Positions 4,386 to 50,137 of a stretch of DNA of 64,000 bases are shown piece after piece. How positions within the stretch are numbered: the first letter of the stretch is position 1; every line of letters starts with the position of its first letter. Source of the stretch: a virus; IMG/VR virus record IMGVR_UViG_3300036781_000418, positions 219,296 to 283,295 of that record; one strand, written 5' to 3'. Under the pieces are notes generated by a model. It was given only the letters and a program-made list of their open reading frames with translations. It was not told the origin of the DNA and did no database searches. The translations under genes and the position numbers were made by a program.

Positions 4386-5503
4386 ACGGCCGTTGGTGTG
4401 CTTGGCGCGGCCAAGGTGGTCATAGCCGCCGAGATCTGCGTCGAACCGACGAAGCCGGTGTTGATGTACTGGAACGTCGCGCCAGCCACACCCTTAACGG
4501 CGAAGCCAGTGCTGCCGTTCGAGTAGATCGTCGAAGCCAGCGACGCGAAGGTGCCGCCGTTGGCGACCACCGCAACGTCCGCGTTCAGCGAATCGTTCGT
4601 CACGTACATGCCTTCCACGACCAACGTGCCACCCAGCACCGAGACGGCACCAGTTGCGTTGTTGGCTTCAAGGCCGCCGTTCGACAGGTAGATCTTGCCA
4701 GACCGCATGATGATGGCGGGTGAAGCACCGCACTCGGACACGAAGTTGCGAGCGTAGCCCGACACGTTCAGCAGGTCGACGGCCGCGGTGGAACCGCTGG
4801 CGACCTTGATGTCGACATTGACCCAGTGCATTGGCGAGGCCGTGACCGAGGTGCCGTTCACGAGGATGGCGCGCTGGCCGGCGTTCTGCATGGCGATCTT
4901 GACGTTGCGCAGTTCGAGCAGTCCAGCATTGACGCCGGTCATGGTGATAGCATCACCAGCACTTGGGTTGACCATCACGTCGCACAAGCCAAGGATCGTG
5001 TTGAACTCGTTGCCGTTCAGCGTGGTCGACGGGTTGTAGGTGACGGAGCCGTTGATCGTGGTGCCAGCACCGGTGGAACCACCGAAGCCGACGATCACGG
5101 TGCGAGGGCGTGACACGCTCACGGCACCTGAGTAGACGCCTGGAAATACGAGGATGGTTGCCAAGGCACCGTCGGCCACGACCGTCAGCGCGTTGTCATG
5201 TGCCTTCTGGATAGTCAGGAACGGCTTGGAGATCGAACCGTCACCAGTCGTGTCGTTGCCGGTCTTGGAGACGAAGATGGCGGGCGTGAACGGTGCGATC
5301 GTCGTTGGCGCGCTGCCGCCACCTTCTTCGAACTCGATCCAGGCGGTGCCGTCCCAGGTGTAGTAGGTACCAGGCGCAACGCCTTCATCCGTAATGAGGA
5401 TGATGTTGCCAGGCTTGATGTCGTTTGGGTAGGTCGCGGCGAAGGAGTCGGCGCGAGCACGGGTCATCGTCTGTGGACCCTTACCAATAGCACGATAGGT
5501 CAT
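4382..5503 (-). CDS. tailspike/depolymerase-like protein with pectate-lyase-type beta-helix
   Basis: minus ORF; start moved to the MTYRAIGKG ATG with AAGGA RBS; Gly/Asn/Thr/Val-rich repeats and the SKPFLTIQKA pattern typical of the pectin-lyase fold. Confidence 0.55.
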   Translation of the reverse strand: MTYRAIGKGPQTMTRARADSFAATYPNDIKPGNIILITDEGVAPGTYYTWDGTAWIEFEEGGGSAPTTIAPFTPAIFVSKTGNDTTGDGSISKPFLTIQKAHDNALTVVADGALATILVFPGVYSGAVSVSRPRTVIVGFGGSTGAGTTINGSVTYNPSTTLNGNEFNTILGLCDVMVNPSAGDAITMTGVNAGLLELRNVKIAMQNAGQRAILVNGTSVTASPMHWVNVDIKVASGSTAAVDLLNVSGYARNFVSECGASPAIIMRSGKIYLSNGGLEANNATGAVSVLGGTLVVEGMYVTNDSLNADVAVVANGGTFASLASTIYSNGSTGFAVKGVAGATFQYINTGFVGSTQISAAMTTLAAPSTPTAV

Positions 5504-19372: not shown

Positions 19373-19465
19373 GAACTTTGCTGCTGTTGGTCCTTCTATT
19401 TATCGAAGTGCGCCGTAAAACGGTGCTACAATGACCTTCCCTTCTCAACTTTACGGAGCACCATC

Positions 19466-20389
19466 GTGGAGCTTTTCGGAATCATGTTTAACGGCTTGGC
19501 CATGCTGTGCTTGGTGGTCATCAGCCTCTTCATCTTCGCGGGGATCTGGCTTGATCGTCGCGGAACATGGTGGGCATGGAAATGGGCGGGTACGGCCGCA
19601 CTGTTCGCCTACGTCTACTACATCAGCAACCTCCCGTACAACTTCGACGCCGTCCTTGGTGTGTTGACCTCCGCCGCCTTCTGGAAACCAGTCGGTACGT
19701 TCATCGGCGTCGGGCTGCTGTACACCGTCGTTGAGTTCCTCGCTGGCAACTACCGCATGGCCCGCAAGATCGCCGCGCTGTGGCAGTCCTTCCTCTCGAG
19801 CCGTCTGTCGTTGCGGTTGCCTGGTCAGCAACACTCGTCCACTGACCTGTCGTTCCTGCAGTTCGCCGACCCGTCGTACGCCGCCAAGGCCGCCGCGGTC
19901 GACGCTGACCTTGCCACGACCAAGTCGCTGATCGCGAAGTTGGGCAAGCAAGTCTACGTACCGCTCGCCGAACTGGGTGGTGAGAACGCGCAAGCCAGCG
20001 AAGAGTTGGCCGGCCTCATCACCAAGTACGGTTGGAACTACAGCTACGTGGGCCGCCTTGATGAGGGTCACTACGTTGGTGACTACAACGACCAGCTCAA
20101 GGAACGCCTGGGCGACTTCGTCGGCAGCGTGCGCTTCTACGCGGACTACATCGACTTGAACATCGTGACGTCCTCCGCGCCACCGACCCTCGAACCGTCC
20201 GTGAACAAGCTGCGCCTCGGCAAGTCCATCTGCGCCTGGGCCCTGCTGTGGCCGTTCTACGCGATCCACCTGCTGCTGGGTGACCTGCTGCAACACGTCG
20301 CCGACGCCCTCGCCTCCCTGTTCGCCAAGTTCGGCAGCCGCTTCGTGAAGCTCGCCTTCGCCGGCGTCTTCGACATGAAGACCAGCTGA
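19466..20389 (+). CDS. membrane protein (307 aa)
   Basis: ORF track; N-terminal TM helices. Confidence 0.5.
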   Translation: MELFGIMFNGLAMLCLVVISLFIFAGIWLDRRGTWWAWKWAGTAALFAYVYYISNLPYNFDAVLGVLTSAAFWKPVGTFIGVGLLYTVVEFLAGNYRMARKIAALWQSFLSSRLSLRLPGQQHSSTDLSFLQFADPSYAAKAAAVDADLATTKSLIAKLGKQVYVPLAELGGENAQASEELAGLITKYGWNYSYVGRLDEGHYVGDYNDQLKERLGDFVGSVRFYADYIDLNIVTSSAPPTLEPSVNKLRLGKSICAWALLWPFYAIHLLLGDLLQHVADALASLFAKFGSRFVKLAFAGVFDMKTS

Positions 20390-20407
20390 TCACCAACGCT
20401 GTAACCT

Positions 20408-20434
20408 AAATAGGGAGGCGTTGCCTCCCTATTT
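20408..20434 (+). promoter_or_regulatory. conserved hairpin AAATAGGGAGGC-loop-GCCTCCCTATTT containing the TAAATAG box, 5 nt before ATG
   Basis: 12-bp perfect stem; second copy at 33591-33617. Confidence 0.5.
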
Positions 20435-20439
20435 CCATT

Positions 20440-21507
20440 ATGACCGCTCTCAAAACCTTCGAGCCAAACACCCTTGGTCGTGACATTGTCCTTGGTGACA
20501 TGCACGGCAAGCTTGGGCTCGTGCAGAAGGTGCTGACCCACCTGAACTACGATCCACAAGTTGACCGTCTCTTCTCGGTTGGTGACCTTGTTGACCGTGG
20601 CGAGGACAACCTCGGCTGCCTACGACTCCTGCGTCAGGGCCTGAACGCCGTACAGTCCAACCATGGCGAGTTCATGTCCCACGCCTACTTCGGTCCGAAC
20701 GACTCGACGTTGGCGATGAACTGGCCCAGCAACGGCGGCATGTGGGCGATCGACCAATGGGTTGAGTGGCACGACTTTCTGCACACCAACAAGCACATGA
20801 GTCAAGAGGCGGCCGAGTTGGCCGAACTTGCTGAGCTCCAACGTGAGCTGCCCGTGCTGATCACCATCAACCACCGCAACGGCAAGAAGTACCACATCGT
20901 CCACGCGGAGTTGCCGTACCTTCGGATGTACGAGCCGATCACGGACCGTCAGCTGTCTGACCCTGCCAAGGTACAGTTCATGTCGGATCGAAAGTATGAC
21001 CGGTACAACCTTGAGCGCTGCTTCCTTTGGCTGCGTGACATGTTCGGCTCGTTCCATGAGGCGGACATGTCGAACGAAGCCGTCTTTAAGCGGCGAGTTG
21101 CGGGAATGGCCCACCACTCGCACATCAACATGCGTGAAATCTTCACGGACCAGCTGAGCCACGTAATCTCAGGCCACACGCCAGTACACCGCCCGTTCAC
21201 CATGGTGGGCCAGACGAACATCGACACGGGCTCCTATAAGGAGTTTAAGTACAAGTGGGCCGGTGTCACCGCGTTGGTCCTAGACGACTGGACCTTCTGG
21301 AAGGCTCGATCCGAAGGTGTCGAGCAGGTTCAGCCGATGACTATGACCTTTGAGGACTTTGAAAGCTATGGACAGAACAATGACGTTCAAGTGCTCCCCG
21401 GAACAGGAGGAGTACATCATGGATCACCTACAACGGGGGACGAAGGACGTCCTGATCCATCACTCGGAACGGACGTGGATTGCGAACCACGTACACAAGA
21501 AGGTTGA
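20440..21507 (+). CDS. Ser/Thr protein phosphatase (PPP/lambda-phosphatase-like)
   Basis: GDMHG, GDLVDRGEDN, SNHGEF motifs. Confidence 0.7.
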   Translation: MTALKTFEPNTLGRDIVLGDMHGKLGLVQKVLTHLNYDPQVDRLFSVGDLVDRGEDNLGCLRLLRQGLNAVQSNHGEFMSHAYFGPNDSTLAMNWPSNGGMWAIDQWVEWHDFLHTNKHMSQEAAELAELAELQRELPVLITINHRNGKKYHIVHAELPYLRMYEPITDRQLSDPAKVQFMSDRKYDRYNLERCFLWLRDMFGSFHEADMSNEAVFKRRVAGMAHHSHINMREIFTDQLSHVISGHTPVHRPFTMVGQTNIDTGSYKEFKYKWAGVTALVLDDWTFWKARSEGVEQVQPMTMTFEDFESYGQNNDVQVLPGTGGVHHGSPTTGDEGRPDPSLGTDVDCEPRTQEG

Positions 21508-21604
21508 AGGTGCCTGTTCCATCAAGGGCGCTGACCTTGACATCACCACGGGAGCATGGACCGTAACCGTTCATACACCCGATAATACTCGCGCCGAACT
21601 GTAG
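21350..21604 (+). CDS. hypothetical protein; start uncertain (overlaps phosphatase 3' end)
   Basis: ORF track only. Confidence 0.3.
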   Translation: MRTLKAMDRTMTFKCSPEQEEYIMDHLQRGTKDVLIHHSERTWIANHVHKKVEGACSIKGADLDITTGAWTVTVHTPDNTRAEL

Positions 21605-21626
21605 GCCGTCGACTTAAAATGGTGAC

Positions 21627-21773
21627 ATGAAACTTGTAGTCAAACAACCGAAGCAGCGCAATAAGCGGCTTCACGAGGTGTTGGGACGATGCAAGAGCGG
21701 TAAGATGAAGGATCGTCGACGGCTCGCTAAGAACCAGGACGATCGCAACTGGAAGAAGTATGACTGCGAATGA
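21627..21773 (+). CDS. small basic protein (48 aa)
   Basis: ATG 5 nt after the TTAAAATGG box; not in >=60 aa track. Confidence 0.3.
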   Translation: MKLVVKQPKQRNKRLHEVLGRCKSGKMKDRRRLAKNQDDRNWKKYDCE

Positions 21774-22242
21774 CCTAGACGATTTGGACGTGCTGATCAC
21801 ACGGGCATTGCTCAACGAGCGCATCAACGTCTTCGGTGAAGATGCCGGTGGTCGCAACTACTACCAACCCTTCTTCTCGACGGTGGCCTTGGTTGACACC
21901 ATCTTTGGCGCAAAACGGTTTGAGCGCTCTTTTCAAGTGTCCACCATCGTCACCTACGCCATTGAGTTCCTGCTGGTGACGTCAACGATCGGTGAACTCT
22001 ACGATTCATTGGGCATGCGTCGTGAAGAGCAAGGCATGGACGAGCCAGTCGTCGACACCGTGAACAAGCTGAACAACGCCAAGTTGATCGGCGACCGCAA
22101 CCTCGAGCTTGGCCTGCGCGCCGCCTTCCAAGGTGTCGGTATTCCGGACGTTGCCTGGACGCTGCCGAACAAAACCATCAAGGGTGCTGACGGCAACGAA
22201 CGCACCCAGATCATCTTCTTCCTCGACAAAATTCCGATGTAG
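21760..22242 (+). CDS. hypothetical protein (160 aa)
   Basis: ORF track. Confidence 0.5.
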   Translation: MTANDLDDLDVLITRALLNERINVFGEDAGGRNYYQPFFSTVALVDTIFGAKRFERSFQVSTIVTYAIEFLLVTSTIGELYDSLGMRREEQGMDEPVVDTVNKLNNAKLIGDRNLELGLRAAFQGVGIPDVAWTLPNKTIKGADGNERTQIIFFLDKIPM

Positions 22243-22250
22243 GTGACCCT

Positions 22251-22427
22251 ATGCGCTGGCGCTGGTTTATTCGACTCCTTGAATATCTGCACCTTCGGTG
22301 CCGTCATGAAGACGTGTTCATCGAGACGATCCATGAACAGAGCCTGCGCGGTGGCTACGCCCATTGGTCCAACGTCTTCAAGTGCCAGAAGTGCGGCCGA
22401 TTCAGCACTCACGAACTCGACCTTTAG
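22251..22427 (+). CDS. small zinc-ribbon-like protein (58 aa)
   Basis: CQKCGRF motif; fills the gap before cca. Confidence 0.35.
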   Translation: MRWRWFIRLLEYLHLRCRHEDVFIETIHEQSLRGGYAHWSNVFKCQKCGRFSTHELDL

Positions 22428-22436
22428 GAGAACCAC

Positions 22437-23540
22437 ATGGAACGATACCTGGTCGGCGGTGCAGTCCGCGACGCGCTGATGAACGTGACACCAAAAGACC
22501 GTGACTGGGTCCTTGTCGGCGCTACGCAGCAGGACATTGACGACATGGTCAAGGAAGGGTACCAGTGGGTTGGTGCCGACTTCCCCGTGCTGATCCACCC
22601 AAAAACGAAAGAGGAGCACGCCCTCGCCCGAGTCGAACGTAAAGTCGGCCATGGCTACAACGGCTTTGAGGTGGACACGGAGGGCGTCACCCTCGAGCAG
22701 GACCTGGCACGTCGCGACCTGACCATCAACGCGATGGCTTGGGACACGAGCCCATCGATGGTGTACGAAGACGACATCATCGACCCGTACGGCGGTCGCA
22801 ATGACATCAAGCACAAGATCATCCGTCACACGACGATGGCCTTCGTTGAAGATCCGCTCCGAGCCCTGCGTGTCGCGCGCTTCGCCGCCCGCCTCAGCTT
22901 CAGCGTCCACCCCACCACACACGACCTCATCAAGCACATGGGAACGTCCGGTGAACTGGAACACCTGACCGACGAACGTGTCTGGGCCGAGGTGAAGAAG
23001 GGCCTAAGCGGTCCGCACCCCACCGTCTTCATGTACCAGCTCTACAACCTCGGCATCATCAAGCACTGCGCAGTACTGCGTGAGGTCTTTCCATGGACCT
23101 ACGAGTTCGTCGCCTACGGCGTGACGAAGTACCTGCGCATGGTCAAGGAGGAAGATCGCTTCGAACTGGGCCTGGCCTGCATGATGGCGTGTGGTGACGT
23201 TGAAAAGATCAAGGCCATTCCGTCCAGGACGAAGAAGGTCTACAACAACATCGGCTACCTGAACGAGATCCATGACTGGTCAAACGTGGCGGCCGACAAG
23301 TTGGTGACGGTCATCACGAAGATCGGCGGCCTACGTGAAGGCACGATGTTTGACGACATCGTCACCTGCCTCCAGCTGACGAAGCCAACGCAGATCGAGA
23401 TCATCGACATCTTGACGGCCAGCCGCATGGTGATGCAGCAAGTTCGAGCCGACCAGTTCCCAGACCTTGAAGGCCAAGCGCTCGGGGCCGCGATGATCCA
23501 AGAACGTGCGAAGCGCGTTGCTGAGCTGTTGTTACAATAA
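22437..23540 (+). CDS. cca: tRNA nucleotidyltransferase (CCA-adding enzyme, class II)
   Basis: [11 protein letters not shown] (GGxVRD), [26 protein letters not shown]. Confidence 0.8.
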
Positions 23541-23567
23541 CAACATCGACCACCTACAAGGAAAGCA

Positions 23568-23816
23568 ATGTCCCGCAACAGCAAAGGTTACCGCACCGTC
23601 GCTCGCCGCAAGGCCAACACACTGGCCCGTAAGAACGGCAACCCAGGACCGGCAAAGACGATGCCGCAGCACGGCAAGCGCTGGACCTACCGCCACAACC
23701 CCGAAGTCGCGAAGCGCGTCGCGGAAATGATCAAGGCGACGGCGGTCGCCGATCGCCAAGCCAAGACCTCCGGCAAGGCGCTCCTCGCCAAGGCCGGTGG
23801 CGCATCGAAGGAGTAA
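23568..23816 (+). CDS. basic hypothetical protein (82 aa)
   Basis: ORF track. Confidence 0.5.
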   Translation: MSRNSKGYRTVARRKANTLARKNGNPGPAKTMPQHGKRWTYRHNPEVAKRVAEMIKATAVADRQAKTSGKALLAKAGGASKE

Positions 23817-23819
23817 TCC

Positions 23820-24320
23820 ATGGAAGCCAAGGTCATCGACTCGAAGACGCTTCGACGTCTTGTGTACTACTACGGGCCATGGCACGAGTACCGTGACACG
23901 GTGTGGAGCGACGAAGAGCACACGTGGGTCGCAACGGGCACCAAGTACACTCGTGACACCGACATCTGCGACCTCTTCGGCGCGATCTGCAAGGCCTTGC
24001 TGAACATCAGCATGTTGATGCTCATGCTTTCCGTCGCGGCCTTCGTACTCGGTGACCTTGGTGCTTGGGTTCTGGCTGCCGTTCAAGCACACCACTGGAT
24101 CGAAGTAGGTCCAGGCTTCGTGGTGGTCTCTGTCATGTTGGCGATGATCGCGTTTCTTGCCGTCATCATGGGCATCTACTACGGCGGCAACTGGCTGATT
24201 AAGAAGATTGACGAACGTCGTGGCCGTAAGGCCGTGGCGTCAGGTGTCAACTACATGACGATCGGCGACGCCTGGAAAGCATGGCGCGAGAAGTACTGCT
24301 TCAAGTTGGAGATCCGCTGA
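23820..24320 (+). CDS. membrane protein (166 aa)
   Basis: ORF track; TM helices. Confidence 0.5.
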   Translation: MEAKVIDSKTLRRLVYYYGPWHEYRDTVWSDEEHTWVATGTKYTRDTDICDLFGAICKALLNISMLMLMLSVAAFVLGDLGAWVLAAVQAHHWIEVGPGFVVVSVMLAMIAFLAVIMGIYYGGNWLIKKIDERRGRKAVASGVNYMTIGDAWKAWREKYCFKLEIR

Positions 24321-24709
24321 TGTTCGCCGTCCTCACCCTGTTGACGCTGCTGCAGCTCAAGCACTTCATCATCGACTTTCCAATGCAGGGTCCGTTCCAG
24401 TACTTGAACAAGGGAACGTACGGTCACCCAGGCGGCCTGCTCCACGCGCTCAACCACGGCATCGGCACCCTGTTGGCGCTGTGCGGTCTCAGTCTCTTCG
24501 GAGTTCACGTCGCGCTGGTGACGGTGGTGTGGTTGTTCCTGTTCGACATGGTGATTCACTACCACATCGACTGGGCCAAGATGAGCCTCAACAAGAAGCT
24601 TGGCTGGGGACCGACGACGCATGAAGAGTTCTGGTGGCTCCTTGGTCTTGACCAGCTCCTCCACCAACTGACCTACCTCCTGATCGTTTACCTGGCACTT
24701 GCACCATGA
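24320..24709 (+). CDS. membrane protein (129 aa)
   Basis: ATGA overlap; TM helices. Confidence 0.5.
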   Translation: MFAVLTLLTLLQLKHFIIDFPMQGPFQYLNKGTYGHPGGLLHALNHGIGTLLALCGLSLFGVHVALVTVVWLFLFDMVIHYHIDWAKMSLNKKLGWGPTTHEEFWWLLGLDQLLHQLTYLLIVYLALAP

Positions 24710-25209
24710 GCATTCCAAAGAAGTGTGACTTGAACTTCTTCATCGACTCGGACGGCGTCGTCGCTGACTTCGTCACGACGAAGCTGAAGTTGGGCATGAC
24801 GTCTGAACAGTTCAAGCACGAGCCCGGCGCCTACACGTACCTTGGCTTCATGCCCGGCGCTGAAGACGCACTGACACGGTTGAAGATGTACGACGACGCG
24901 AACATCGCCCGTGTTTGGATCGCCACCAAGACACCGGCTGGCGCACCGTACGCATACTCCGAGAAGGCGCTCTGGTACCGTTGGAACGCGCCATGGCTTG
25001 AGGACCGCGTGATTCTCATCCATGACAAGTCGCTGCTTGGTACGGAGAACGACGTGCTCGTCGACGACCGCGCCCACAAGGGCGGTTGTGAGCACTTCCG
25101 CGGCACGTTCATCAACTTCGGTTCGGATCAGTACCCCAACTGGTCAGTGGTTCTCCAGAAGCTGGAGGACATCATCATTCAACGTCAACAGGCAAAGGAT
25201 CAACCATGA
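24706..25209 (+). CDS. 5'(3')-deoxyribonucleotidase-like HAD hydrolase
   Basis: motif FFIDSDGVVADF (DxDGVxADF). Confidence 0.55.
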   Translation: MSIPKKCDLNFFIDSDGVVADFVTTKLKLGMTSEQFKHEPGAYTYLGFMPGAEDALTRLKMYDDANIARVWIATKTPAGAPYAYSEKALWYRWNAPWLEDRVILIHDKSLLGTENDVLVDDRAHKGGCEHFRGTFINFGSDQYPNWSVVLQKLEDIIIQRQQAKDQP

Positions 25210-25478
25210 GTGCTGAACATGAACGTGTCGTCGCGATCAACGAAGCGGTCGACAACCTCGTCAACTACCTGCAATCGTTGCCCAAGGAACAGTACGCCAA
25301 GGCGATGGTGCTCCAGAACCGCATCTGGGCGGCCATGAACGAAGCCGGTGACGATCCGCAACAGCGCCTCGTCCACTTCATGAAGGTCTTCGCTCAGGTG
25401 ACCGCCGAGCAGGCCAACCTGATGGTCGCGGCCGTCTGCAAGTACGTGGGCGACGAAGTTCCGAAAGCGCCGACTTGA
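25206..25478 (+). CDS. hypothetical protein (90 aa)
   Basis: ORF track; ATGA overlap. Confidence 0.5.
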   Translation: MSAEHERVVAINEAVDNLVNYLQSLPKEQYAKAMVLQNRIWAAMNEAGDDPQQRLVHFMKVFAQVTAEQANLMVAAVCKYVGDEVPKAPT

Positions 25479-25684
25479 CGTCCATTCTCCGCAAGATCGC
25501 GGTCGACCTCCTACACGGTCGACTTCCGCCTTCAGCTTCGGTGGAGTTGAAGGAGGAGCGTCTCAAGCTCTGTGAGGGCTGCGACAACTTCAAACCACTG
25601 GCTCGTCAGTGTGGTCTTTGCGGATGTTTCATGGACATCAAGGCCAAGCTCCTCGAAGCCACCTGTCCAATTGACCTATGGTGA
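25475..25684 (+). CDS. Cys-rich small protein (69 aa)
   Basis: CEGCDNF...CGLCGC. Confidence 0.45.
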   Translation: MTSILRKIAVDLLHGRLPPSASVELKEERLKLCEGCDNFKPLARQCGLCGCFMDIKAKLLEATCPIDLW

Positions 25685-25688
25685 CCCT

Positions 25689-26489
25689 ATGCACGTAAAC
25701 ATGAACACCCCTACCGCCGTGGAAACTCGTTCCGGCCTCTTCATCGACTTGGCTGATCCAGACCCAGCCACCATCCTGACGACCGATATCTTCTGGGCCC
25801 TGTCGCGCCAGCCACGCTTCGGTGGCGCCTCTACCTGCGAGGAGATCTACACGGTCGCCCAGCACTCCGTGCTTGCGGCCCACCTGGTCTACAACCTGCT
25901 CTTCAGCGGCTCCATCTTGGAGGACGCTCCGGTTTACCCCAGTGGTGGTAATACCGTGACCGGCGAGCTGTGGATGCGCTTCCGTCAGTTCGTAATGTAC
26001 AAGGTTGGCGAAGGTCGGGCCGATCACGTTGAGACCATCAAGACGATGGAGCTGTTCACGGCCCTGACTCAGGGCGCCCATGAACCCAAGCTGCGCGTCG
26101 TCTTGGAAGGCCTCCGCCACGACTGGGCCGAAGGTTACCTGATCGACTTGCCCACGCCGGTCAAGCGCTACCAAGGAGTTCGTGCCGCCTACGAGGAGCT
26201 CGAGCAGAAGGTCATGGGCGCGATCAACGCGCGCTACGACCTTGATGTCATCACCCCACACCTGCCGATCATGGACATCATGGTCAAGTGGGCCGACGAC
26301 CAGGCCTTGGCGATCGAGGCCGCGCAGTTCATTCCATCAGGTGGCATCGGCTGGATGGTGTGGTCGAAGCCCCTGCCGCCTGACTTGACCGTGGAGATGG
26401 AGGTCTGGGACGGAGTATGGGACCAGGTTGAAGCTCGCCGCCAGCTGACCGAGCTCAACGGACACCTGATGCGTCAGTACCACGCGTAA
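25689..26489 (+). CDS. hypothetical protein, possible HD-domain hydrolase (YfbR-like)
   Basis: start at MHVNMNT; weak YTVAQHS...H pattern. Confidence 0.45.
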   Translation: MHVNMNTPTAVETRSGLFIDLADPDPATILTTDIFWALSRQPRFGGASTCEEIYTVAQHSVLAAHLVYNLLFSGSILEDAPVYPSGGNTVTGELWMRFRQFVMYKVGEGRADHVETIKTMELFTALTQGAHEPKLRVVLEGLRHDWAEGYLIDLPTPVKRYQGVRAAYEELEQKVMGAINARYDLDVITPHLPIMDIMVKWADDQALAIEAAQFIPSGGIGWMVWSKPLPPDLTVEMEVWDGVWDQVEARRQLTELNGHLMRQYHA

Positions 26490-26647
26490 CCTGACCGACC
26501 TCAACTGACGGCCTCCTCGTGAGGCCGTCATCGTCTGCACCGTACGGCGACACGAGGCGACGACAGGGCCTTCCGAAGCACGGCGACGTAGAGACATACA
26601 CGGCACGTGCCTGTAAATAGCTGATCACCACCGGTACCTTTGAGCAC

Positions 26648-27403
26648 ATGTACAAGAACCTATCCGATCTTCTCAAGGAAGACTTCGACGACACCGTCCA
26701 CAAGGCCTTCGGGACCGTCAACTCCGCCTTCTCTGACGTCTACGGCCGGTTCAAGCGTAAGCAGGACGAAGCTGAGGCCATGGACGCCAAGTCAAAGGCC
26801 GCCGCGGACGCTGAGCAGAAGAAGAACGACAAGGTCAACGCGACCATCTCCGCGGCCGAAGGCGACCAGCACCTGAAGGCCATCATGTACGGTGACCTGT
26901 TCGGTGCACAGACAATGTACGACGAGCATGGTGACTTTGAAGACCCGGCCTGGCACAGCCTGTCGGCCGAGAAGGTGCAGGACCTGCAGAAACTGGCGAA
27001 GAACTTCAAGGCTGACATGACGACCCTCAAGAAACAACTGACCCAGCGCATGGCTAAATCAGACCAGATTAAGGCGTACGAGCGCAGTGAAGTCGCTGGT
27101 TGGATGAACGACCGCACGGTCAACCGAGGCATCCTTAGCCTCCTACAAAACCCAGTCATCAGCGGCATCTTCGCCAACCTCCTTACAAGTCGAAACGTTG
27201 AGACGGCCGTTGATAAAATCTACAACAACTTCGTCGCTGGCATCGTCAAACAAAACAAGCGTGTTAGCTCAAAGATGTCCTCACCGCTATCTGACGAACG
27301 ACTGGTGCGTTTTCAAGGCGCGTTGGTGAATCAAGTTGAGAGCCGTGCCAACCTGTTTGTGGATGCGCTTGAGAAACTTGAGCACGAAACCATCCGTGAG
27401 TAA
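26648..27403 (+). CDS. hypothetical protein (251 aa)
   Basis: ORF track; TAAATAG box 18 nt upstream. Confidence 0.55.
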   Translation: MYKNLSDLLKEDFDDTVHKAFGTVNSAFSDVYGRFKRKQDEAEAMDAKSKAAADAEQKKNDKVNATISAAEGDQHLKAIMYGDLFGAQTMYDEHGDFEDPAWHSLSAEKVQDLQKLAKNFKADMTTLKKQLTQRMAKSDQIKAYERSEVAGWMNDRTVNRGILSLLQNPVISGIFANLLTSRNVETAVDKIYNNFVAGIVKQNKRVSSKMSSPLSDERLVRFQGALVNQVESRANLFVDALEKLEHETIRE

Positions 27404-27432
27404 ATAAGAGTACACCACTTGGAGTCCATCCG

Positions 27433-27753
27433 ATGAAATATGAGAACCTACAGACCCTAGCCGCACTGTTCAAGCCACGCTTGGAAGAGTCCGGGGCTGG
27501 CAAGTCGAACGTTGAGCGATCACTAGGTTCCGTAAATGACGCCCTGGCCATGCTGCATCGACTGCTGAAGCCAGGCGGTCAACTCCAAGACGACCTGAAG
27601 CGTGGTCAGTTCATGCACCTTGACAAGGCCGAAGACGAGCACGGTGAGAACGTCACGCAGCGCCTGGCCTCGATTACCAGCACCTACATCAAGGAAGTTG
27701 AACGCCTGACGACGGAGCTGGAGCTCATGGTTCACTCCAAACCTGACACCTGA
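27433..27753 (+). CDS. hypothetical protein (106 aa)
   Basis: ORF track. Confidence 0.5.
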   Translation: MKYENLQTLAALFKPRLEESGAGKSNVERSLGSVNDALAMLHRLLKPGGQLQDDLKRGQFMHLDKAEDEHGENVTQRLASITSTYIKEVERLTTELELMVHSKPDT

Positions 27754-27807
27754 TCCTCAGTTTCATTGTCTTCGATCTGCCTCATCAGGTACGTCTCAAC
27801 GTAGAAT

Positions 27808-28428
27808 GTGCCTAATGAGGCAGCATCGTTTGGAGAACCTGTGACTAAGATTCTGTACGTGTACGAACATGAGTTGGAGCTTGACGTTGGATTTGAGCTC
27901 CTGAAGCTGGAGCGGTTGGAACGCTACGCGTTCGTCGGTCAGCGCTGTGGATCCCCATCTGGCCGCGCCCTGTTCGCCAGCCTGCGAGACGAGCCGGCGA
28001 TCCGCTGTTTCAACTGCGGCCTGAAGGCCAGCGTTTGGATCGTGGACCGCTCCGCGAACGAGCAGTACCCTAACCGACAGCAGGGCGTCATAAATCGTCG
28101 GATGAACCTCTTCGGCCGGAACGCTGAAGGCGAGCTGGTGATGATGACCCAGGACCACATCATCCCAGTATCCAAGGGTGGTTTCACGGTCCTCGAGAAC
28201 TTGCGTCCCGCGTGTGAGCGCTGTAACTCACGACGTGGGAACACGATGAACGCGAACGATCTAAAATTCATGAAGCAGCACCCACACCTGCACCTTCATG
28301 GTAAGGTCAAGAAAGGCAAGAAGCGGCATGCGCCAAGACATGAACAAGCTCCTGACGGAACGGGAGCGCCAACACTCGCACGCGAAGTACCGTGCAATCC
28401 GTCACACGAAGTACAACTCGCTGCTTAA
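27808..28428 (+). CDS. HNH endonuclease
   Basis: QDHIIPVSKGG...N...CERCNSRRGN; GTG start per track. Confidence 0.6.
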   Translation: MPNEAASFGEPVTKILYVYEHELELDVGFELLKLERLERYAFVGQRCGSPSGRALFASLRDEPAIRCFNCGLKASVWIVDRSANEQYPNRQQGVINRRMNLFGRNAEGELVMMTQDHIIPVSKGGFTVLENLRPACERCNSRRGNTMNANDLKFMKQHPHLHLHGKVKKGKKRHAPRHEQAPDGTGAPTLAREVPCNPSHEVQLAA

Positions 28429-29323
28429 CGACGGCGAAGTTGGCGGGAAGCAGGGCGTCACCAAGCCCCACAAGCAGCGCTACGACCAGAAGTCCTTCAA
28501 CGAGAACCTCAACCCACTGTTGGGGTACCTCCACCGCAGCGTGGGTCGGCCTTGGGACAAGGTCTACTCCGAGATCTGCGAGGCCTTTGACACACGCAAG
28601 GTCATCAACCGCCACATCCTCGTGCACCTCGCCGACTTCGTCATCCTTGACGCGGTGATGAGGGACGGGGTCGTGTCCAAGCTTGACACGGGCTACACTG
28701 GCAAGCGTGAGAAGGACTACGAAGCGCGGTGGCGGCCGCTGTCTGAATGGACCGAGTCGCAGTCCTACCCGCTCTACTACAAGCACCCCATCGACGGCCT
28801 GTTGAAGATCCAAAAGGGTCCGTCGTACCGTCAAGTTCGGAAGCAGCGCGATCAAGCCCGTGAAGCTGAACATGCCAAGGTCTACCGTCGCATCGCGCCG
28901 TTGGTTGAGGCGATCAACCACAACGGCATTTGGTACCGCTGCGAGTGGGAGCCCTACCCAGAACCAACCGTCATCTACGTCTGCCCGCCGCTGAGAACTC
29001 CTGAGATGTACGGCGTCGCCTCTTGGAGCGACCTCTCTGACGAAACCAAGCGCAAGCACGGCCAAGCGGTGAACCGCTACGACTACAAGCCTGGCCACAT
29101 CCCTGGTTACGAGCTGTGCAAGGTGATCGAGAACATCAGCCGAGTCGAACGTTTCTCAAAGGAAGTGCTTGGTTCAACCGTGCGGCGCGGCGCCGACGGT
29201 AACAAGCCCAAGCTGGCAAAGTTCTACCTGCGTGACGTCACCCAGTGTTCACACAACCAGCTGCGTGACTACGGCCTGGTGAACACCCACGTCGCCAAAC
29301 AGCGCTCGCGCCGCGGTCGCTAA
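28328..29323 (+). CDS. hypothetical protein; start uncertain, overlaps HNH 3' end by ~100 nt
   Basis: ORF track. Confidence 0.45.
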   Translation: MRQDMNKLLTERERQHSHAKYRAIRHTKYNSLLNDGEVGGKQGVTKPHKQRYDQKSFNENLNPLLGYLHRSVGRPWDKVYSEICEAFDTRKVINRHILVHLADFVILDAVMRDGVVSKLDTGYTGKREKDYEARWRPLSEWTESQSYPLYYKHPIDGLLKIQKGPSYRQVRKQRDQAREAEHAKVYRRIAPLVEAINHNGIWYRCEWEPYPEPTVIYVCPPLRTPEMYGVASWSDLSDETKRKHGQAVNRYDYKPGHIPGYELCKVIENISRVERFSKEVLGSTVRRGADGNKPKLAKFYLRDVTQCSHNQLRDYGLVNTHVAKQRSRRGR

Positions 29324-29404
29324 ATACACCGTGCCACCCTGGCACGTCTAAACGGAGTCTTAATTTGGGCTCTTACTCCGTGAGCCGTTTCAATAGGAGA
29401 TACC

Positions 29405-30232
29405 ATGATGTATCAACAAAAGCTTGTCGTTTCCGTGAAGGCGAATGGCAAGGTCCTGCGGGAGCAGGGCGACAACGTCTTCGTGCCGTTCGGTTCGGAG
29501 TACAGCCTCTTCATCAAGAACTTGAACACCGTGCGCGCGTCGGTTAGCATCAGCATCGACGGCGAAGACGCCACCAGCGGCTACTCACTGATCGTCGGTC
29601 CCAACGAGTCGTTGGAGGTTGAGCGCTTCATCAAGGACGGCAACCTTCAGGCTGGCCAGCGCTTCAAGTTCATCGAGCGCACGAACAAGGTTGAGCAGCA
29701 CCGCGGTGTCGGCTCCGAGGATGGTCTGATCCGTGTGGAGTACCAGTTCGAAAAGCCGTACGTTCCGCCAGCCTACACGATCACCAGCACCTACTTCAAC
29801 AACCCACCACCAACGTACTACACGTGCGCTCGTGGGCGAATCGGCAGTGTGCAACCTAGTGCACAGGACTATGTAAAGGACTATTCAAAGGGTCTCGACA
29901 ACGTCTTCCTGAACAGCACGTTCTGCAGCACTACCGGCGCCGCGACGTTCGACAGCGGTGAGGTCGCTCAAGCGCAGAATGTGGCCTTGAACGACGTGGG
30001 TATCACGGTCGGCGGCTCGGTCTCGCAGCAGCTGTTTCACCAGGTGCTCGACTTCCAGAAGGAGGCGGCGAAGCACGTGATCGTCATGCACATGCGTGGT
30101 CAGGTTGGTGAGACGGTGATCAAGACTCCAGTCACCGTGAAGCACAAGGTTGAATGCCCAACCTGCGGAACTAAGAACAAGTCGTTCACGAAGTTCTGCG
30201 GCGAGTGCGGCACAGGTTTGTCAATGGTGTGA
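29405..30232 (+). CDS. hypothetical protein with C-terminal zinc ribbon
   Basis: CPTCGTKNKSFTKFCGECG. Confidence 0.55.
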   Translation: MMYQQKLVVSVKANGKVLREQGDNVFVPFGSEYSLFIKNLNTVRASVSISIDGEDATSGYSLIVGPNESLEVERFIKDGNLQAGQRFKFIERTNKVEQHRGVGSEDGLIRVEYQFEKPYVPPAYTITSTYFNNPPPTYYTCARGRIGSVQPSAQDYVKDYSKGLDNVFLNSTFCSTTGAATFDSGEVAQAQNVALNDVGITVGGSVSQQLFHQVLDFQKEAAKHVIVMHMRGQVGETVIKTPVTVKHKVECPTCGTKNKSFTKFCGECGTGLSMV

Positions 30233-30280
30233 CCCAACTCTAGTTGATCCCCTCGCTCGTGGTGTCGTTAAAATGGCACC

Positions 30281-30694
30281 ATGAAGATCTACCTCAACCG
30301 CAAGTTCACTGAGAACCTCAACACGTTCGGCAACGGTATCCTCATGGGGATCGTCGAGTCGCCGACGATCCTGTGGGCCATCGTTCGATGGCCCTTTCGG
30401 CTTGTCAAGAACATCTGCCTTACCATCTTCGAGTACGGTGGCGCTGAGGTTGGGTTGACGGTGCTCTTGATTGGAACAATTGTTGGGATTATAACCATCC
30501 TCATTGGTGTCCTCACCATGGCAACAAACGGGGCTGACGCCACGCCATCAGAGATCCGCGAGGCTCGAGCGGTCAGCGCCTGCACCGACCAGGCTATCAA
30601 GGACGCTGGCGTCAAGAACGGTGACGTTCCACTGATCCACCTGCAGGTTAAGAACATCGTCAAGGTCTGCGCGACGAAGGAGGCCCTCAAGTGA
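30281..30694 (+). CDS. membrane protein, paralog A of a tandem triplet
   Basis: TM segments plus conserved C-terminal Cys pair and ...ALK end. Confidence 0.5.
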   Translation: MKIYLNRKFTENLNTFGNGILMGIVESPTILWAIVRWPFRLVKNICLTIFEYGGAEVGLTVLLIGTIVGIITILIGVLTMATNGADATPSEIREARAVSACTDQAIKDAGVKNGDVPLIHLQVKNIVKVCATKEALK

Positions 30695-31116
30695 GCTTTA
30701 ACCCAACCTACCACCTGTGGCGGCGACGAGTAACCTCCGTCAAGTCCATCGTCTACGACCTCCTCCTGTTGGTCTGCTGGCCGATCCTGCTGCCGTACCG
30801 CGCAATGCGCTGGTTCTTTCGCCAAGATGGTGCTGACATCTTCGGTATACTCTTCTTAGGGTTCATTGGTAGCGTGATCACACTGTTCATCGGCGCGCTG
30901 GTCATGGAGGGAATCAGCGGGCGACCAGCTACACGCGAAGAGATTCAGGAGACGCGTGGAATCAGCTACTGCACGGCCAAGTACGTCAAGGACATGGCCA
31001 CCTCGAACAAGGACGTTCCAGTCACACTCAAGCAGCTGCACACGGCCAAGCGTGAATGCGCCGAGATGTACGAGCGGCTGGCCGCTCAAAAGGAACAAGC
31101 GGAGGCCCTCAAATGA
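30691..31116 (+). CDS. membrane protein, paralog B (GTG start)
   Basis: same architecture; overlapping stop/start. Confidence 0.5.
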   Translation: MSFNPTYHLWRRRVTSVKSIVYDLLLLVCWPILLPYRAMRWFFRQDGADIFGILFLGFIGSVITLFIGALVMEGISGRPATREEIQETRGISYCTAKYVKDMATSNKDVPVTLKQLHTAKRECAEMYERLAAQKEQAEALK

Positions 31117-31520
31117 GCGCACTAGCAAGCTTTCGGATGTGGAAGCGTCGGGCCGATGACGTCGCCGGCCTCCTGCTCTTCTTGGGTTTCACGGTCATAA
31201 AGTGGCCGCTCAAGGCGCTTGGCTTCTGCTGGGACTTGGTGTGCTACATGTTCGACAGTGCGTTCATTGTCGTGCTGCTACCGATGTCGGTGATTGGGCT
31301 GCTGTTCCTTGGCAACATGGTAGACAGCCACAACAACCAGCCAGTCTCGCCTGAGGTGCTCGCTGCCGAACGGGCTGGTTCCACCTGCATGGCCACCAAC
31401 CTGCGCGAGCAGCTGGCAGCCAACAAGAACAAACCCATTACCAAGCGACAACTCAACACGGTCCGAGAGACCTGCCAGCCCATCATCGACAGCGAGCGCC
31501 AGGCCGCCGCCCTCAAGTAA
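31113..31520 (+). CDS. membrane protein, paralog C
   Basis: ATGA overlap; ends ...AAALK. Confidence 0.5.
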   Translation: MSALASFRMWKRRADDVAGLLLFLGFTVIKWPLKALGFCWDLVCYMFDSAFIVVLLPMSVIGLLFLGNMVDSHNNQPVSPEVLAAERAGSTCMATNLREQLAANKNKPITKRQLNTVRETCQPIIDSERQAAALK

Positions 31521-31541
31521 TTCAACCACCACAGGACCCAC

Positions 31542-31766
31542 ATGTACCTGCACACGATCGACGAACCCCGCTCCAAGGCCTTCTTCCGCGGTCGCCTGAC
31601 CAAGGTGGAGGAGATCCAGATTCGTGCCGCCTCGGAGGCCGGGTTGGAGAGCATGATCGACACCCACTTCTCGGCGGACCGCATCACCATCGAGACCCTC
31701 AAGGAGGTCAAGGCCGACCTCCACGCCGAACTCGCCGCCTTCACCCAGACCAACTGGTGGAAGTGA
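31542..31766 (+). CDS. hypothetical protein (74 aa)
   Basis: ORF track. Confidence 0.45.
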   Translation: MYLHTIDEPRSKAFFRGRLTKVEEIQIRAASEAGLESMIDTHFSADRITIETLKEVKADLHAELAAFTQTNWWK

Positions 31767-32650
31767 TGTCCGAGGACTCAATCCCATTGGAGTTTAGCAA
31801 AATGTCAACTGAACAAAAATCATCCGCCGTCATCGTGATCATCGGCGTCGTGGCGGTCCTTGGGGCCGTCGCCACCTTCCTCGTCTGGCTCTTGCTCATG
31901 ACCACCCTTACGGTGGAACCGGGCCATGAGCAGGTCATCGTGGACAAACCCTACTTCTTCGGCCATGAGGGCGTCCGCACTGAACCGCTGAAGGACGGCC
32001 GCATCACGGTGTGGCGCACCACCACGTCCTACGACGTGAACATGACGCCACAGTCCACCCACGTCGTCTTCGATGACTTCAGCTCGCACGACAACATCCT
32101 GTTGGACTTCGAGACGACGATCCAGTTCCGCTACACGAACTCAGTGACGCTCATCTCCAAGTTCGGCGAGGAGTGGTTCGCGAACAACGTGGGTCGTCAG
32201 TACGGCGCCATCGTCCGAGAAGCCGTGAAACGCCGCACGATGTCGGACATGATGTCGGACGTCGACACCGCCACGCAGTTGGACGCTGAGGTCACGCTCG
32301 CCTTGGAGAAGCACGTCAAGGACAACGGCCTGCCCGTTCAAATCCTCGGCGTCTCCCTTGGCCGTGCCAAGCCGAACCCCAACGTCCTGGCGCAGATGAA
32401 CGAGACGGCGGCCCAGCAGCAACGCCAGAAGACCTTGGTCGCCGCGACGGCCGCTGAAGGTCAACGTGAGCTGGAGCAGGTGGCCAAGGCGAAGGCGGAC
32501 AACGCGTACCGCAACGCCATGAACTTGACCCCTGAGATGTTCATCCAGCTCGAGAAGATCAAGCGCTACTCGGACGCTTGCCAGAAACCCGGCAACGTGT
32601 GCGTGGTGGACGCGACGGGCAACACCAACGTGAACGTCGGCGTGAAGTAA
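31757..32650 (+). CDS. SPFH/band-7 (HflK/C-prohibitin-like) membrane protein
   Basis: N-terminal TM then TVEPGHEQVIVDKPYFFG and coiled-coil QQQRQKTLVAATAAEGQRELEQ. Confidence 0.6.
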   Translation: MEVMSEDSIPLEFSKMSTEQKSSAVIVIIGVVAVLGAVATFLVWLLLMTTLTVEPGHEQVIVDKPYFFGHEGVRTEPLKDGRITVWRTTTSYDVNMTPQSTHVVFDDFSSHDNILLDFETTIQFRYTNSVTLISKFGEEWFANNVGRQYGAIVREAVKRRTMSDMMSDVDTATQLDAEVTLALEKHVKDNGLPVQILGVSLGRAKPNPNVLAQMNETAAQQQRQKTLVAATAAEGQRELEQVAKAKADNAYRNAMNLTPEMFIQLEKIKRYSDACQKPGNVCVVDATGNTNVNVGVK

Positions 32651-32737
32651 ATAGAGCAGCCTAGGTCCCACACGTCAAAAGCACGTCACGACCTAGGTGT
32701 TACTATTTTGCATTCAACTTTCACTTTTGGAGAACCC

Positions 32738-33568
32738 ATGATCAAATCTATCCACACCCTCAAGAACCTCCTCGTGTCCCGCACGATTGAAGTCCGAACC
32801 AAGGCTCGCGTCGCCAAGATCGCCGCCATTCAAGTCGAGCTCCCTCACCTGCTCATCGACATCTCCTCCGCCAAAGCCTCTCCGTACGACACGTCTAAGG
32901 TTGCCGCCGACATGCTCGAGCTGGCCCTTGACCTGCTGCTGACGAACACGGCCTACGACCTCGATGTGATGGTGTCCAACCTTACGACCAAGCTGTCCGC
33001 CACGCTACCGAACATCGTGCCCAACGCGGCCGCGGCCGCCGTCGACATCAAGGATATCCTGAAATCTAGCGGTGCCGGTGCCACGGCCAAGGCCAAGCTT
33101 ATCGCGGACCTTGCGCAGAAGAAGATCGACGCCGCAATGACCGCCTGGCCGTTCGCCAAGCCCACCGTACCAGCTGACACGGTGGACACAACTCGGGCCG
33201 CGAAGAACGCCATGAAGGACGCCATCTTCAACGGCCTTCGGACCAACAGCTCCACCCCGGTTGCACCAACGCTGTCGACGGTGAAGGGCGTACCACCGCG
33301 CAAGGTGAACGGCAAGCCGGCCGTTTGGGCCAACGTCCGCAAAGGCGCTGGTATCACGACTGGCAAGCGTCGCATTACAGGAATGGCAACTGACTACAGT
33401 GGCTTCACGCAGGTGGGCATCGGCAAGGACGCCGCGTGCGGCTGGAAGGTGAAGACCGGCGTGACGGAAGCTCCGTTCCTGACCTTCATCATCGGTAGCG
33501 AGAACGGCGTCAAGGTCTCCTTCGACGAAGCACTCACCTACTGGAACCTCTCGCTCAACGCGAAGTAA
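32738..33568 (+). CDS. hypothetical protein (276 aa)
   Basis: start at MIKSIH; TAAATAG box upstream. Confidence 0.5.
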   Translation: MIKSIHTLKNLLVSRTIEVRTKARVAKIAAIQVELPHLLIDISSAKASPYDTSKVAADMLELALDLLLTNTAYDLDVMVSNLTTKLSATLPNIVPNAAAAAVDIKDILKSSGAGATAKAKLIADLAQKKIDAAMTAWPFAKPTVPADTVDTTRAAKNAMKDAIFNGLRTNSSTPVAPTLSTVKGVPPRKVNGKPAVWANVRKGAGITTGKRRITGMATDYSGFTQVGIGKDAACGWKVKTGVTEAPFLTFIIGSENGVKVSFDEALTYWNLSLNAK

Positions 33569-33590
33569 GCGTCTTTCGGCCGGGTTACGT

Positions 33591-33617
33591 AAATAGGGAC
33601 TGACTAAGTCCCTATTT
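33591..33617 (+). promoter_or_regulatory. conserved hairpin AAATAGGGAC-loop-GTCCCTATTT containing the TAAATAG box, 4 nt before ATG
   Basis: 10-bp stem; paralog of the 20408-20434 element. Confidence 0.5.
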
Positions 33618-33621: not shown

Positions 33622-33834
33622 ATGCGCAAGACCACTGAACTCGACGAAGACATTACCTCCGGCATCTCACCTTCGAAGCCAGCTTACCCAACGGGGCGCT
33701 TTGACCCTGAAGCCTGGCGGAACGGCAAGGGCCCTAAGAAGGACGACGCTGAGGAAGACAAGGGCAAGACCAAGAAGGTCTTGCCGAAGCGCCGCTCCTT
33801 TAGGGCCTACGTTGACGAGCAAAAGCGCTCGTAA
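33622..33834 (+). CDS. basic hypothetical protein (70 aa)
   Basis: ORF track. Confidence 0.45.
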   Translation: MRKTTELDEDITSGISPSKPAYPTGRFDPEAWRNGKGPKKDDAEEDKGKTKKVLPKRRSFRAYVDEQKRS

Positions 33835-37457: not shown

Positions 37458-37514
37458 TATAGCTTTGAGTAAGCTTGCTAAATAGGAAGCAACAATTCCA
37501 TTTAGGAGTCTCTC

Positions 37515-50118: not shown

Positions 50119-50137
50119 TACCGACCCGGCGACACGA

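Follow-up and report, generated by a model that had tools for sequence, protein, structure and literature searches.

Putative composite promoter/terminator hairpins built around a TAAATA box in an uncultivated giant phage

Can a few bases be at once a promoter, in DNA, and the foot of a hairpin, in RNA? The question is raised by two gene junctions in a 64,000-nucleotide (nt) stretch of viral DNA (positions 219,296 to 283,295 of IMG/VR record IMGVR_UViG_3300036781_000418; this whole stretch is called the window below), where a perfect hairpin carrying TAAATAG in its 5' arm stands directly ahead of a start codon. A first-pass annotation made from the letters alone had read the two hairpins as either a combined terminator/promoter or a translational-control structure. 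With slightly better than even confidence, we consider both to be composite promoter/terminator junctions between transcription units. The first of the two earlier proposals therefore appears largely right, given that TAAATA is promoter-like in the window and in relatives and that the hairpins are terminator-like and conserved.

Two conserved hairpins that start within a TAAATAG box

At junction 1, the 5' arm AAATAGGGAGGC (20408-20419), the loop GTT (20420-20422) and the 3' arm GCCTCCCTATTT (20423-20434) form a stem with the GC core GGGAGGC/GCCTCCC followed by TATTTCCATT, and the complete element including the first base of the box (20407-20434) reads TAAATAGGGAGGC-GTT-GCCTCCCTATTT. It follows the upstream stop codon (TGA, 20387-20389) after an 18-nt gap and is separated from the ATG at 20440 by the spacer CCATT (5 nt). 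Junction 2 consists of the 5' arm AAATAGGGACT (33591-33601), the loop GACTA (33602-33606) and the 3' arm AGTCCCTATTT (33607-33617), reading TAAATAGGGACT-GACTA-AGTCCCTATTT over 33590-33617 with the tail TATTTTGGTA; here the gap to the upstream stop codon (TAA, 33566-33568) is 22 nt and the spacer before the ATG at 33622 is TGGT (4 nt). In both cases TAAATAG occupies the first bases of the 5' arm, as in promoter-in-hairpin systems. Perfect stems of 10-12 base pairs (bp) ending 4-5 nt before the ATG had been claimed, and we found stems of 12 and 11 bp at distances of 5 and 4 nt, respectively; the claimed 20-50 nt between stop codon and hairpin was roughly right, the actual values being 18 and 22 nt.

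These structures are not expected by chance. The search pattern of the first-pass annotation matched twice against 0.00 matches expected from shuffled sequences, perfect hairpins with a stem of at least 11 bp numbered nine in the window against none in each of 10 dinucleotide shuffles, and the RNA fold z score was -3.2 at both focal sites.

Conservation was assessed in a related phage and in the sequence around the window. The proteins of the window have identical copies on a 342,591-bp JGI metagenome contig and on Logan contigs of SRR11833507, which identifies the source as an uncultivated giant phage with a genome of about 342 kb; of these 342,591 bp we read about 75 kb, namely the window with ~2.2 kb on its left and ~8.6 kb on its right. 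Isolated and deposited phage genomes, searched by DNA and by protein, gave no syntenic relative, the best single-gene matches among isolated phages being those of an RNA ligase, with counterparts in Ralstonia phage RsoM2USA and in giant Caulobacter phages but unmatched neighbouring genes, and single-protein searches of IMG/VR with the two proteins encoded upstream of the hairpins gave none either. JGI 3300044475 contains a relative (loci L049 and L172; stretches identical to it are present in L173 and L174), in which the flanking proteins are 46-59% identical to those of the window. Both focal hairpins are kept in this relative within spacers that have otherwise diverged. Site 1 reads TAAATAGGGAGGCC-GCTT-GGCCTCCCTATTT in L049, with one extra C-G pair and a new loop, and site 2 reads TAAATAGGGGCT-GATCA-AGTCCCTATTT-TGGT-ATG in L172, with a changed loop and an A-to-G substitution in the 5' arm, so that one A-U pair is replaced by G·U. 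Since this substitution retains pairing in plus-strand RNA and not in DNA or in the opposite strand, it points to RNA of the plus strand as the level at which the structure is maintained.

The hairpin occurs a third time ~5.1 kb past the window on contig L171 (window-equivalent position ~69,125), as TAAATAGGGGC-GCTTT-GCCCCTATT with CCGTTTTCC behind it, and a second TAAATAG stands 39 nt further downstream. The search for further copies proposed in the first-pass annotation thus yielded this copy, within the ~75 kb of genome covered, and the orthologous ones in the relative, contrary to the outcome named there as refuting. When the five hairpins were compared (the two window sites, the two orthologues of the relative and the third copy), the full box with its unpaired first T and a preceding C or G was present in 5/5, and the retention of a T that does not pair indicates that the box itself is under selection, beyond the stem. 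In a MAFFT alignment of the five the outer stem was invariant and the inner stems were inconsistently aligned. Both the structures and their conservation are observed directly.

TAAATA as a promoter-like box

The distribution of TAAATA in the window is promoter-like. It occurs 25 times against 4.3 expected, and TAAATAG 15 times against 1.33 expected, with 14 of these 15 on the plus strand. Every one of the 25 TAAATA copies is intergenic or lies at a gene end or in last codons, and its orientation is that of the next gene or transfer RNA (tRNA). The usual form is (C/G)TAAATA(G), with C or G preferred before the box and G after it (directly after the box in 15/25 copies) and the flanks otherwise unconserved. 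From the start of the box to the start codon the distance is mostly 27-37 nt, with a Shine-Dalgarno sequence in between. The 25 sites include boxes at 1698, 7240, 14256, 26614, 38168, 50168 and 53039 and, on the minus strand, at 61811, 19402 and 5537; another box, at 39057, lies 2 nt ahead of tRNA-Val. The corresponding distances at the focal junctions, 33 nt at junction 1 and 32 nt at junction 2, are those of hairpin-free boxes.

Three observations argue that the box is a promoter and not a terminator-linked or processing signal. The minus-strand boxes at 19402 and 5537 precede the only two isolated minus-strand genes, and since that strand carries no upstream gene there, they cannot be signals associated with a terminator. 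The boxes at 50168 and 53039 sit directly after classic terminators. Finally, a scan for sigma-70-type promoters found them unenriched in the window, with none at either focal junction. No conserved -35 or other conserved element was found upstream of TAAATA among the boxes of the window. TAAATA looks like the promoter box of this phage, a single short -10-like element without a -35.

The box is also kept between phages. In L172 all six boxes of window segment 26614-33849 are at orthologous positions in diverged flanking sequence, and in L049 the minus-strand box at 19402 is kept. More distant relatives, reached via the phosphatase encoded downstream of junction 1 (L175-L177 and L178-L191), include high-GC giant-phage contigs in which TAAATA is again enriched, with 7 copies observed vs 1.6 expected in L175, 9 vs 0.8 in L183, 8 vs 0.8 in L189 and 8 vs 0.5 in L191, and in these four contigs the boxes are again followed by a Shine-Dalgarno sequence and then an ATG. 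The phosphatase gene of L175 and L176 abuts a different upstream gene, with neither spacer nor hairpin. L183 and L191 hold cases of box plus hairpin like those of the window.

Both T4 and another giant phage provide precedents for such a box. The T4 late promoter, TATAAATA, is a single -10-like element without a -35, from which gp55 flips the -12 adenine into a pocket, and the late-like motif ATAAATA has been proposed for giant phage CBB. The core TAAATA, the single -10-like element and the missing -35 are shared with our box; unlike the T4 promoter, the box has C or G at the positions matching -13 and -12, where T4 has T and A, prefers a following G, and would drive tRNA and accessory genes besides a tail-fibre gene. 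With C or G replacing the -12 adenine, the recognition factor may differ from that of T4.

One further TAAATAG box marks a doubtful gene boundary. It lies with a possible ATG (9822) in window segment 9810-9898, within the 3' end of a His-tRNA-synthetase-like open reading frame (ORF; 9164-9898). The ORF from ATG 9822 encodes 271 amino acids (aa) and matches Pfam Endonuclease_NS in the Logan gene call; unless one of them was miscalled, the genes share ~77 nt.

Proposed mechanism, rival explanations and known systems

About a dozen intergenic hairpins in the window resemble intrinsic terminators, and in several of these an A-rich 5' flank is paired with the T-rich tail (AAAG.../...CTTT at 14169, AAAATGG.../...CCATTTT at 41167, and 49697); the terminator at 39233 reads GCGTCCTCC-TATTTTCGC, with the tail CC-TATTTTCGC. 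The energies of the box-containing hairpins (-15 to -24 kcal/mol, with -18.3 and -15.0 at the focal sites) lie within the range of these other terminators. After the last G-C pair the focal tails TATTTCCATT and TATTTTGGTA have 6/10 T, vs 5-8/10 in the other terminators, and the hairpins begin 18 and 22 nt (focal) and 17 nt (third copy) past a stop codon on the coding strand. Hairpins of the focal sequence type also abound in unrelated AT-rich phage contigs; there a long T-run follows the stem, which gives them the shape of intrinsic terminators. These features suggest that the hairpins, too, look like intrinsic terminators of this phage. With bidirectional-type intrinsic terminators they share a GC-rich stem, a short loop, a complementary A-rich 5' flank and a position just after the stop codon; the tail, although U-rich in composition, is short and interrupted (UAUUU), and the A-tract doubles as the promoter consensus.

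Our proposal assigns the two roles to different molecules. At the DNA level, TAAATA would be the promoter box. At the RNA level, its AAAUA would pair with the UAUUU of the tail as the foot of the hairpin, with the GC-rich core above. Both arms would be present only in read-through RNA from the upstream gene, in which hairpin and U-rich tail would act as an intrinsic terminator, and where polymerase reads through, the stem would cover the 12-20 nt directly before the AUG, that is, the ribosome-binding region. With the spacing of T4 late promoters (last A at -6, as derived from the flipped bases at -12, -9 and -8 in TATAAATA), box-initiated RNA would start at about 20418 and 33601, at the top of the 5' arms and hence the hairpin apex. 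Such RNA would lack the 5' arm and would carry no hairpin, undergo no termination and begin with a leader that is short, U-rich and open. At 5-8 nt, the GC part of the 5' arm equals the T4-type distance from a -10-like element to the start site, and five additional A-U pairs join box and tail at junctions independent of each other; as these extra pairs matter only in RNA that contains the box, they point to read-through RNA. What we infer, as opposed to observe, are the start-site position, the termination, the masking of the start region and the factor that reads the box.

Several observations weigh against this proposal. The terminator scan called neither focal hairpin, as the T-run was counted within a stem extended through the A/T tract: the T's of the tail pair with the A-tract, and five or more T in the 8 nt after the full stem are not reached. 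The U-tract itself is interrupted. The Shine-Dalgarno core is absent from -18 to -4 of both downstream genes and the AUG lies outside the stems; by comparison, a 4-mer core precedes 60 and a 3-mer core 79 of the 106 genes called. In L049, hairpin 1 ends 13 nt before the ATG vs 5 nt in the window, so that masking of the start region is poorly conserved. At junction 2 the upstream gene is itself box-driven, and the junction is therefore not always a divider of early and late genes. At 32648, a hairpin begins 7 nt past the box, and with T4-like spacing it would remain in box-initiated RNA. Because the position of the T4 -12 adenine is C or G here, the T4 analogy, and with it the assumed start-site distance, may fail. 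A codon-shuffling test for selection against TAAATA and TATTTA inside genes gave 1 and 0 copies observed against 1.0 and 1.4 expected, which is not significant; as a discriminator between DNA-level and RNA-level action this depletion test was unable to separate the two roles. Finally, the counts of box-containing hairpins cover only the ~75 kb read of the 342-kb genome.

Two alternatives each keep one half of the proposal, and we regard both as unlikely. According to the first, the hairpins are plain intrinsic terminators whose A-tract reads TAAATA by chance, the box is unused and the downstream genes are expressed via partial read-through. Paired A- and T-tracts do occur at 14169 and 41167, the same hairpin type is a common terminator in unrelated phages, and the third copy has a separate downstream TAAATAG that could be the real promoter. 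However, a chance reading does not account for the full box, unpaired T and preceding C/G in all five hairpins, nor for a box-to-ATG spacing equal to that of boxes without hairpins; neither focal spacer holds another promoter-like element between upstream stop and ATG, and a U-tract interrupted by A would be a poor choice for a terminator unless constrained by the box.

The second alternative, a pure translational mask of the T4 gene e type without termination, would have only box-initiated RNA translated and would thereby set the timing of expression. Its attraction is the layout, which is that of T4 genes e, soc, 49 and I-TevI, with stems ending 4-5 nt ahead of the AUG, and the hairpins at 61811 (minus strand) and 50168 in fact contain a Shine-Dalgarno sequence or AUG. 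Site 1 could moreover mark a boundary between early and later genes. The upstream 307-aa gene is preceded by TGcTACAAT, a sigma-70-like extended -10 (19424-19432), and the relative has TATAAT at the equivalent position (about 645-655 of L049), a conserved -10 that such a boundary would fit and with which the 307-aa gene may be transcribed by the host polymerase and the phosphatase gene from the box. Against a pure mask, the focal stems contain neither Shine-Dalgarno nor AUG, the relative has its ATG 13 nt away from the hairpin at site 1, the tails are like those of the window's terminators, and both genes at site 2 are box-driven. Translational masking weaker than in T4 gene e is nevertheless plausible as part of the composite junction. 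The translational control considered in the first-pass annotation is hence retained in part, in that the stem pairs the region where a Shine-Dalgarno sequence normally sits, while the missing Shine-Dalgarno, the AUG outside the stem and the 13-nt distance speak against it. Its notion of a sequestered promoter box is meaningless as regards promoter activity, since promoters act in DNA; what counts is the RNA structure whose 5' strand the box encodes and which box-initiated transcripts would lack.

We give little credence to a third alternative, in which transcription starts immediately after TAAATA, as for phage-encoded polymerases with conserved bases up to +1, and the GC hairpin is an mRNA-stabilising 5' stem-loop or a promoter-proximal attenuator. 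Many hairpins do begin at the base directly after a box (53039, 61811 on the minus strand, 50168 and 35446 in the window, and 4318 in L191), 15/25 boxes have G as their next base, and the 39057 box leaves only 2 nt before tRNA-Val. Yet the 5-bp pairing into the box at independent junctions would be purposeless if the box were untranscribed, and a hairpin and U-tract placed at +1 to +30 would end the very transcripts that the promoter initiates. A somewhat smaller chance still is accorded to any reading in which the hairpin takes part in initiation, whether as an attenuator that follows a start at TAAATA and needs a phage antiterminator or as an extruded DNA hairpin promoter like that of the phage N4 virion polymerase; the attenuator would amount to a regulated on/off switch in the promoter, and either version, if true, would point to an unrecognised transcription mechanism in an uncultivated giant-phage clade. 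Least probable of all is a palindrome acting in DNA, as the operator of a dimeric regulator (half-site AAATAGGGA) or an extruded promoter of the N4 type, since, despite conserved outer half-sites and a variable centre, total length varies from 25 to 30 nt with unfixed half-site spacing, the centre is always self-complementary, the relative's A-to-G change breaks the DNA palindrome and retains RNA pairing, and 21/25 boxes lie outside hairpins.

Returning to the composite junction, its closest functional analogue, by this comparison, is found in T4 genes e, soc, 49 and I-TevI, where a late promoter lies in DNA encoding the 5' strand of an inhibitory leader hairpin and only late transcripts are translated (PMC3014915). 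In both, a short late-type box (TATAAATA in T4, TAAATA here) encodes the 5' strand of a hairpin just before a start codon, and transcripts from upstream can fold the hairpin while those from the embedded promoter would lack its 5' strand. Transcripts of an earlier class reach the T4 hairpins from upstream; here site 1 has the conserved sigma-70-like extended -10 upstream, and at site 2 the upstream gene has a box. Unlike in T4, where the Shine-Dalgarno sequence and/or the AUG lies within the helix, neither does so here and no Shine-Dalgarno is present, the 3' arm ends in a terminator-like U-rich tail, and the box lacks the T4 'TA' prefix.

The closest structural analogue, again by comparison, is the promoter-early stem-loop (PeSL), a type of cassette that insulates neighbouring accessory genes of T4-type phages (PMC2839356; PMC4122927); in the PeSLs of RB49, phi1, nt-1 and PST, -10 box and stem-loop frequently overlap, and tests covered both the terminator and the promoter activity (PMC2839356). 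Like our junctions, PeSLs are small intergenic combinations of a promoter with a stem-loop terminator or attenuator, in which the stem-loop lies beside or across the -10 box and the 3' end is occupied by the start codon. In contrast, the PeSL promoter is of the sigma-70 early type with a -35, a -10 and an AT-rich upstream region, whereas here a single late-like box of 6-7 nt is found; PeSLs share similarity over ~100 bp, are numerous and mediate recombination, whereas only 3-4 box-containing hairpins were found in ~75 kb; and the Shine-Dalgarno sequence of PeSLs is absent from the focal junctions. The element would thus work like the T4 e-type and PeSL systems without strictly belonging to either.

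The design is accordingly already known from T4-type phages, of which it is a good example without a new principle, and the current understanding of phage gene regulation would stay unchanged. Its interest lies in compactness, in that spacers of 50 and 53 nt could use the same bases twice, for a promoter at the DNA level and, in RNA, for the foot of a terminator or masking hairpin. It also lies in a short, testable inventory of regulatory signals for a giant phage that metagenomes alone have revealed. If mapping of start sites and 3' ends confirms the proposal, the T4 principle of a structure present only in transcripts from upstream would hold in a distant group of uncultivated phages as well. 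Of the by-products, the most useful is the 6-7-nt promoter-like TAAATA box common to a group of related uncultivated high-GC giant-phage contigs, and boxes and hairpins together could help annotate transcription units in such genomes.

Other box-hairpin arrangements and further features of the window

Box-containing hairpins amount to two strong ones and a weak one in the 64 kb, plus one nearby. The weak one (37478-37505) had a fold z score of -1.3, which is not significant alone. About 7/25 boxes directly precede a significant hairpin (z <= -2.2), and at the minus-strand box 61811 and at 50168 and 53039 the hairpin abuts or contains a start codon or Shine-Dalgarno sequence; the one at 61811 abuts the ATG of a 948-aa tail-fibre gene and contains part of its AAGGAG. 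In L172 the 32648 stem is conserved, one pair longer and with a different loop, and the 29321 hairpin covaries in the relative. Where terminator and box lie side by side, the spacers measure 77 and 79 nt (50118 to 50198 and 52991 to 53069) against 50 and 53 nt at the focal junctions, so the overlapping layout saves space. The coordinates are collected in Table 1.

Table 1. Window coordinates of the two junctions and of the other arrangements of box and hairpin
Feature	Position	Strand	Description
TAAATAG box, junction 1	20407-20413	+	core TAAATA 20407-20412; first T unpaired; promoter-like
Hairpin 1	20408-20434	+	12-bp perfect stem; -18.3 kcal/mol
Upstream gene, junction 1	19466-20389	+	307 aa; without family match
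Downstream gene, junction 1	20440-21507	+	metallophosphatase, Ser/Thr phosphatase-like; 355 aa; without Shine-Dalgarno
TAAATAG box, junction 2	33590-33596	+	promoter-like; kept in L172, L173 and L174
Hairpin 2	33591-33617	+	11-bp perfect stem; -15.0 kcal/mol
Upstream gene, junction 2	32738-33568	+	276 aa; without family match
Downstream gene, junction 2	33622-33834	+	70 aa; without Shine-Dalgarno
Weaker box-in-hairpin	37478-37505	+	CTAAAT-A-GGAA gcaacaa TTCC-ATTTAG, then GGAG, ATG 37515; -10.0 kcal/mol
TAAATA box 61811-61806 with adjoining 9-bp hairpin	61782-61811	-	CCCATATCT/AGATATGGG; z = -2.4
TAAATAG with adjoining 7-bp hairpin	53039-53066	+	GAGGATC/GATCCTC; ends 2 nt before ATG 53069; separate terminator 53011-53026 ahead
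Non-overlapping layout	50137-50203	+	terminator 50137-50157 with T-tract, TAAATAG 50168-50174, then hairpin GTGCATTC/GAATGCGC holding ATG 50198
TAAATAG over stop codon of Band-7 gene, then hairpin	32648-32710	+	CCTAGGTC...GACCTAGG (32660-32697), tail TGTTACTATTTTG
TAAATA over stop codon, then hairpin	29321-29345	+	GTGCCA/TGGCAC; relative has GTCGCC/GGTGAC at the same position

The genes around the junctions were examined by protein searches. For the 307-aa protein upstream of junction 1, homologues were detected only in the source genome itself and in the relative. The 355-aa protein downstream matches Pfam Metallophos (E = 5e-7) and its homologues are named serine/threonine protein phosphatase 1 in the sources, bearing out its earlier description as a Ser/Thr phosphatase. 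Its closest homologue in a scan of bacterial genome assemblies (L258; Nitrosomonas sp. Nm132, 41% identity) lies on a 3.7-kb contig of 46% GC that may be phage DNA and is uninformative on the motif or the host. The 70-aa protein downstream of junction 2 has a 72-aa orthologue in L172; it had been called basic, which fits its isoelectric point of 9.6, whereas that of the orthologue is 5.4, so that basic charge is not conserved.

Two pattern scans addressed further copies elsewhere. TAAATAGGGAS-N1-9-STCCCTATTT gave 47 matches in IMG/VR, all of them unrelated AT-rich phage terminators or very GC-rich palindromes and none in a relative. The pattern AAATAGGGN{5,20}CCCTATTTAS was too loose for metagenomes: all of the at least 120 loci listed were unrelated, and the source genome and its known relative were absent among these listed matches. 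A palindrome AAATAGGGAC(A/T)GTCCCTATTT, sometimes with partial copies nearby, is repeated across many unrelated metagenome contigs of 65-71% GC (L070, L081, L088, L109, L153, L155, L161 and L167); this element, perhaps an operator or a repeat, is distinct from the focal hairpins and unrelated to the phage of the window.

The window as a whole has 57% GC and 28 tRNA genes, and almost all of its genes lie on the plus strand up to about 58.9 kb, with accessory functions that include a CCA-adding or poly(A)-polymerase-like enzyme, the metallophosphatase, a Band-7 protein, an RNA ligase and tail fibres. At gathering threshold Rfam returned only tRNAs for the window; two of them, at 35184-35255 and 3495-3559, are absent from the ARAGORN list, the latter barely over threshold (31.5 bits vs 29). 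A 12-bp hairpin at 37776-37803 (AAGGGGAACCGA/TCGGTTCCCCTT) has a good T-tail, CTTTGTTTTC, on the minus strand among neighbour genes that are all on the plus strand, and may be a terminator of antisense transcription.

About 3.3 kb past the right end of the window (window-equivalent ~67,300), the minus strand of L171 carries a release-factor-like gene (5350..4676; Pfam PCRF/RF-1) that is broken by an in-frame TGA (ggc TGA act acc cgc ctg GTG) and was called as ORFs of 35 and 184 aa in the same frame. The context of this TGA differs from the prfB +1 frameshift motif, and it could reflect read-through, recoding or autoregulation. Ahead of the tRNA cluster, a long non-coding stretch (33,900-34,340) has a sigma-70-like promoter match at 33884-33913 and two 13-bp perfect hairpins, at 34105-34136 (with a CCGTTTT tail) and at 34243-34272, and it may encode a small RNA or a leader.

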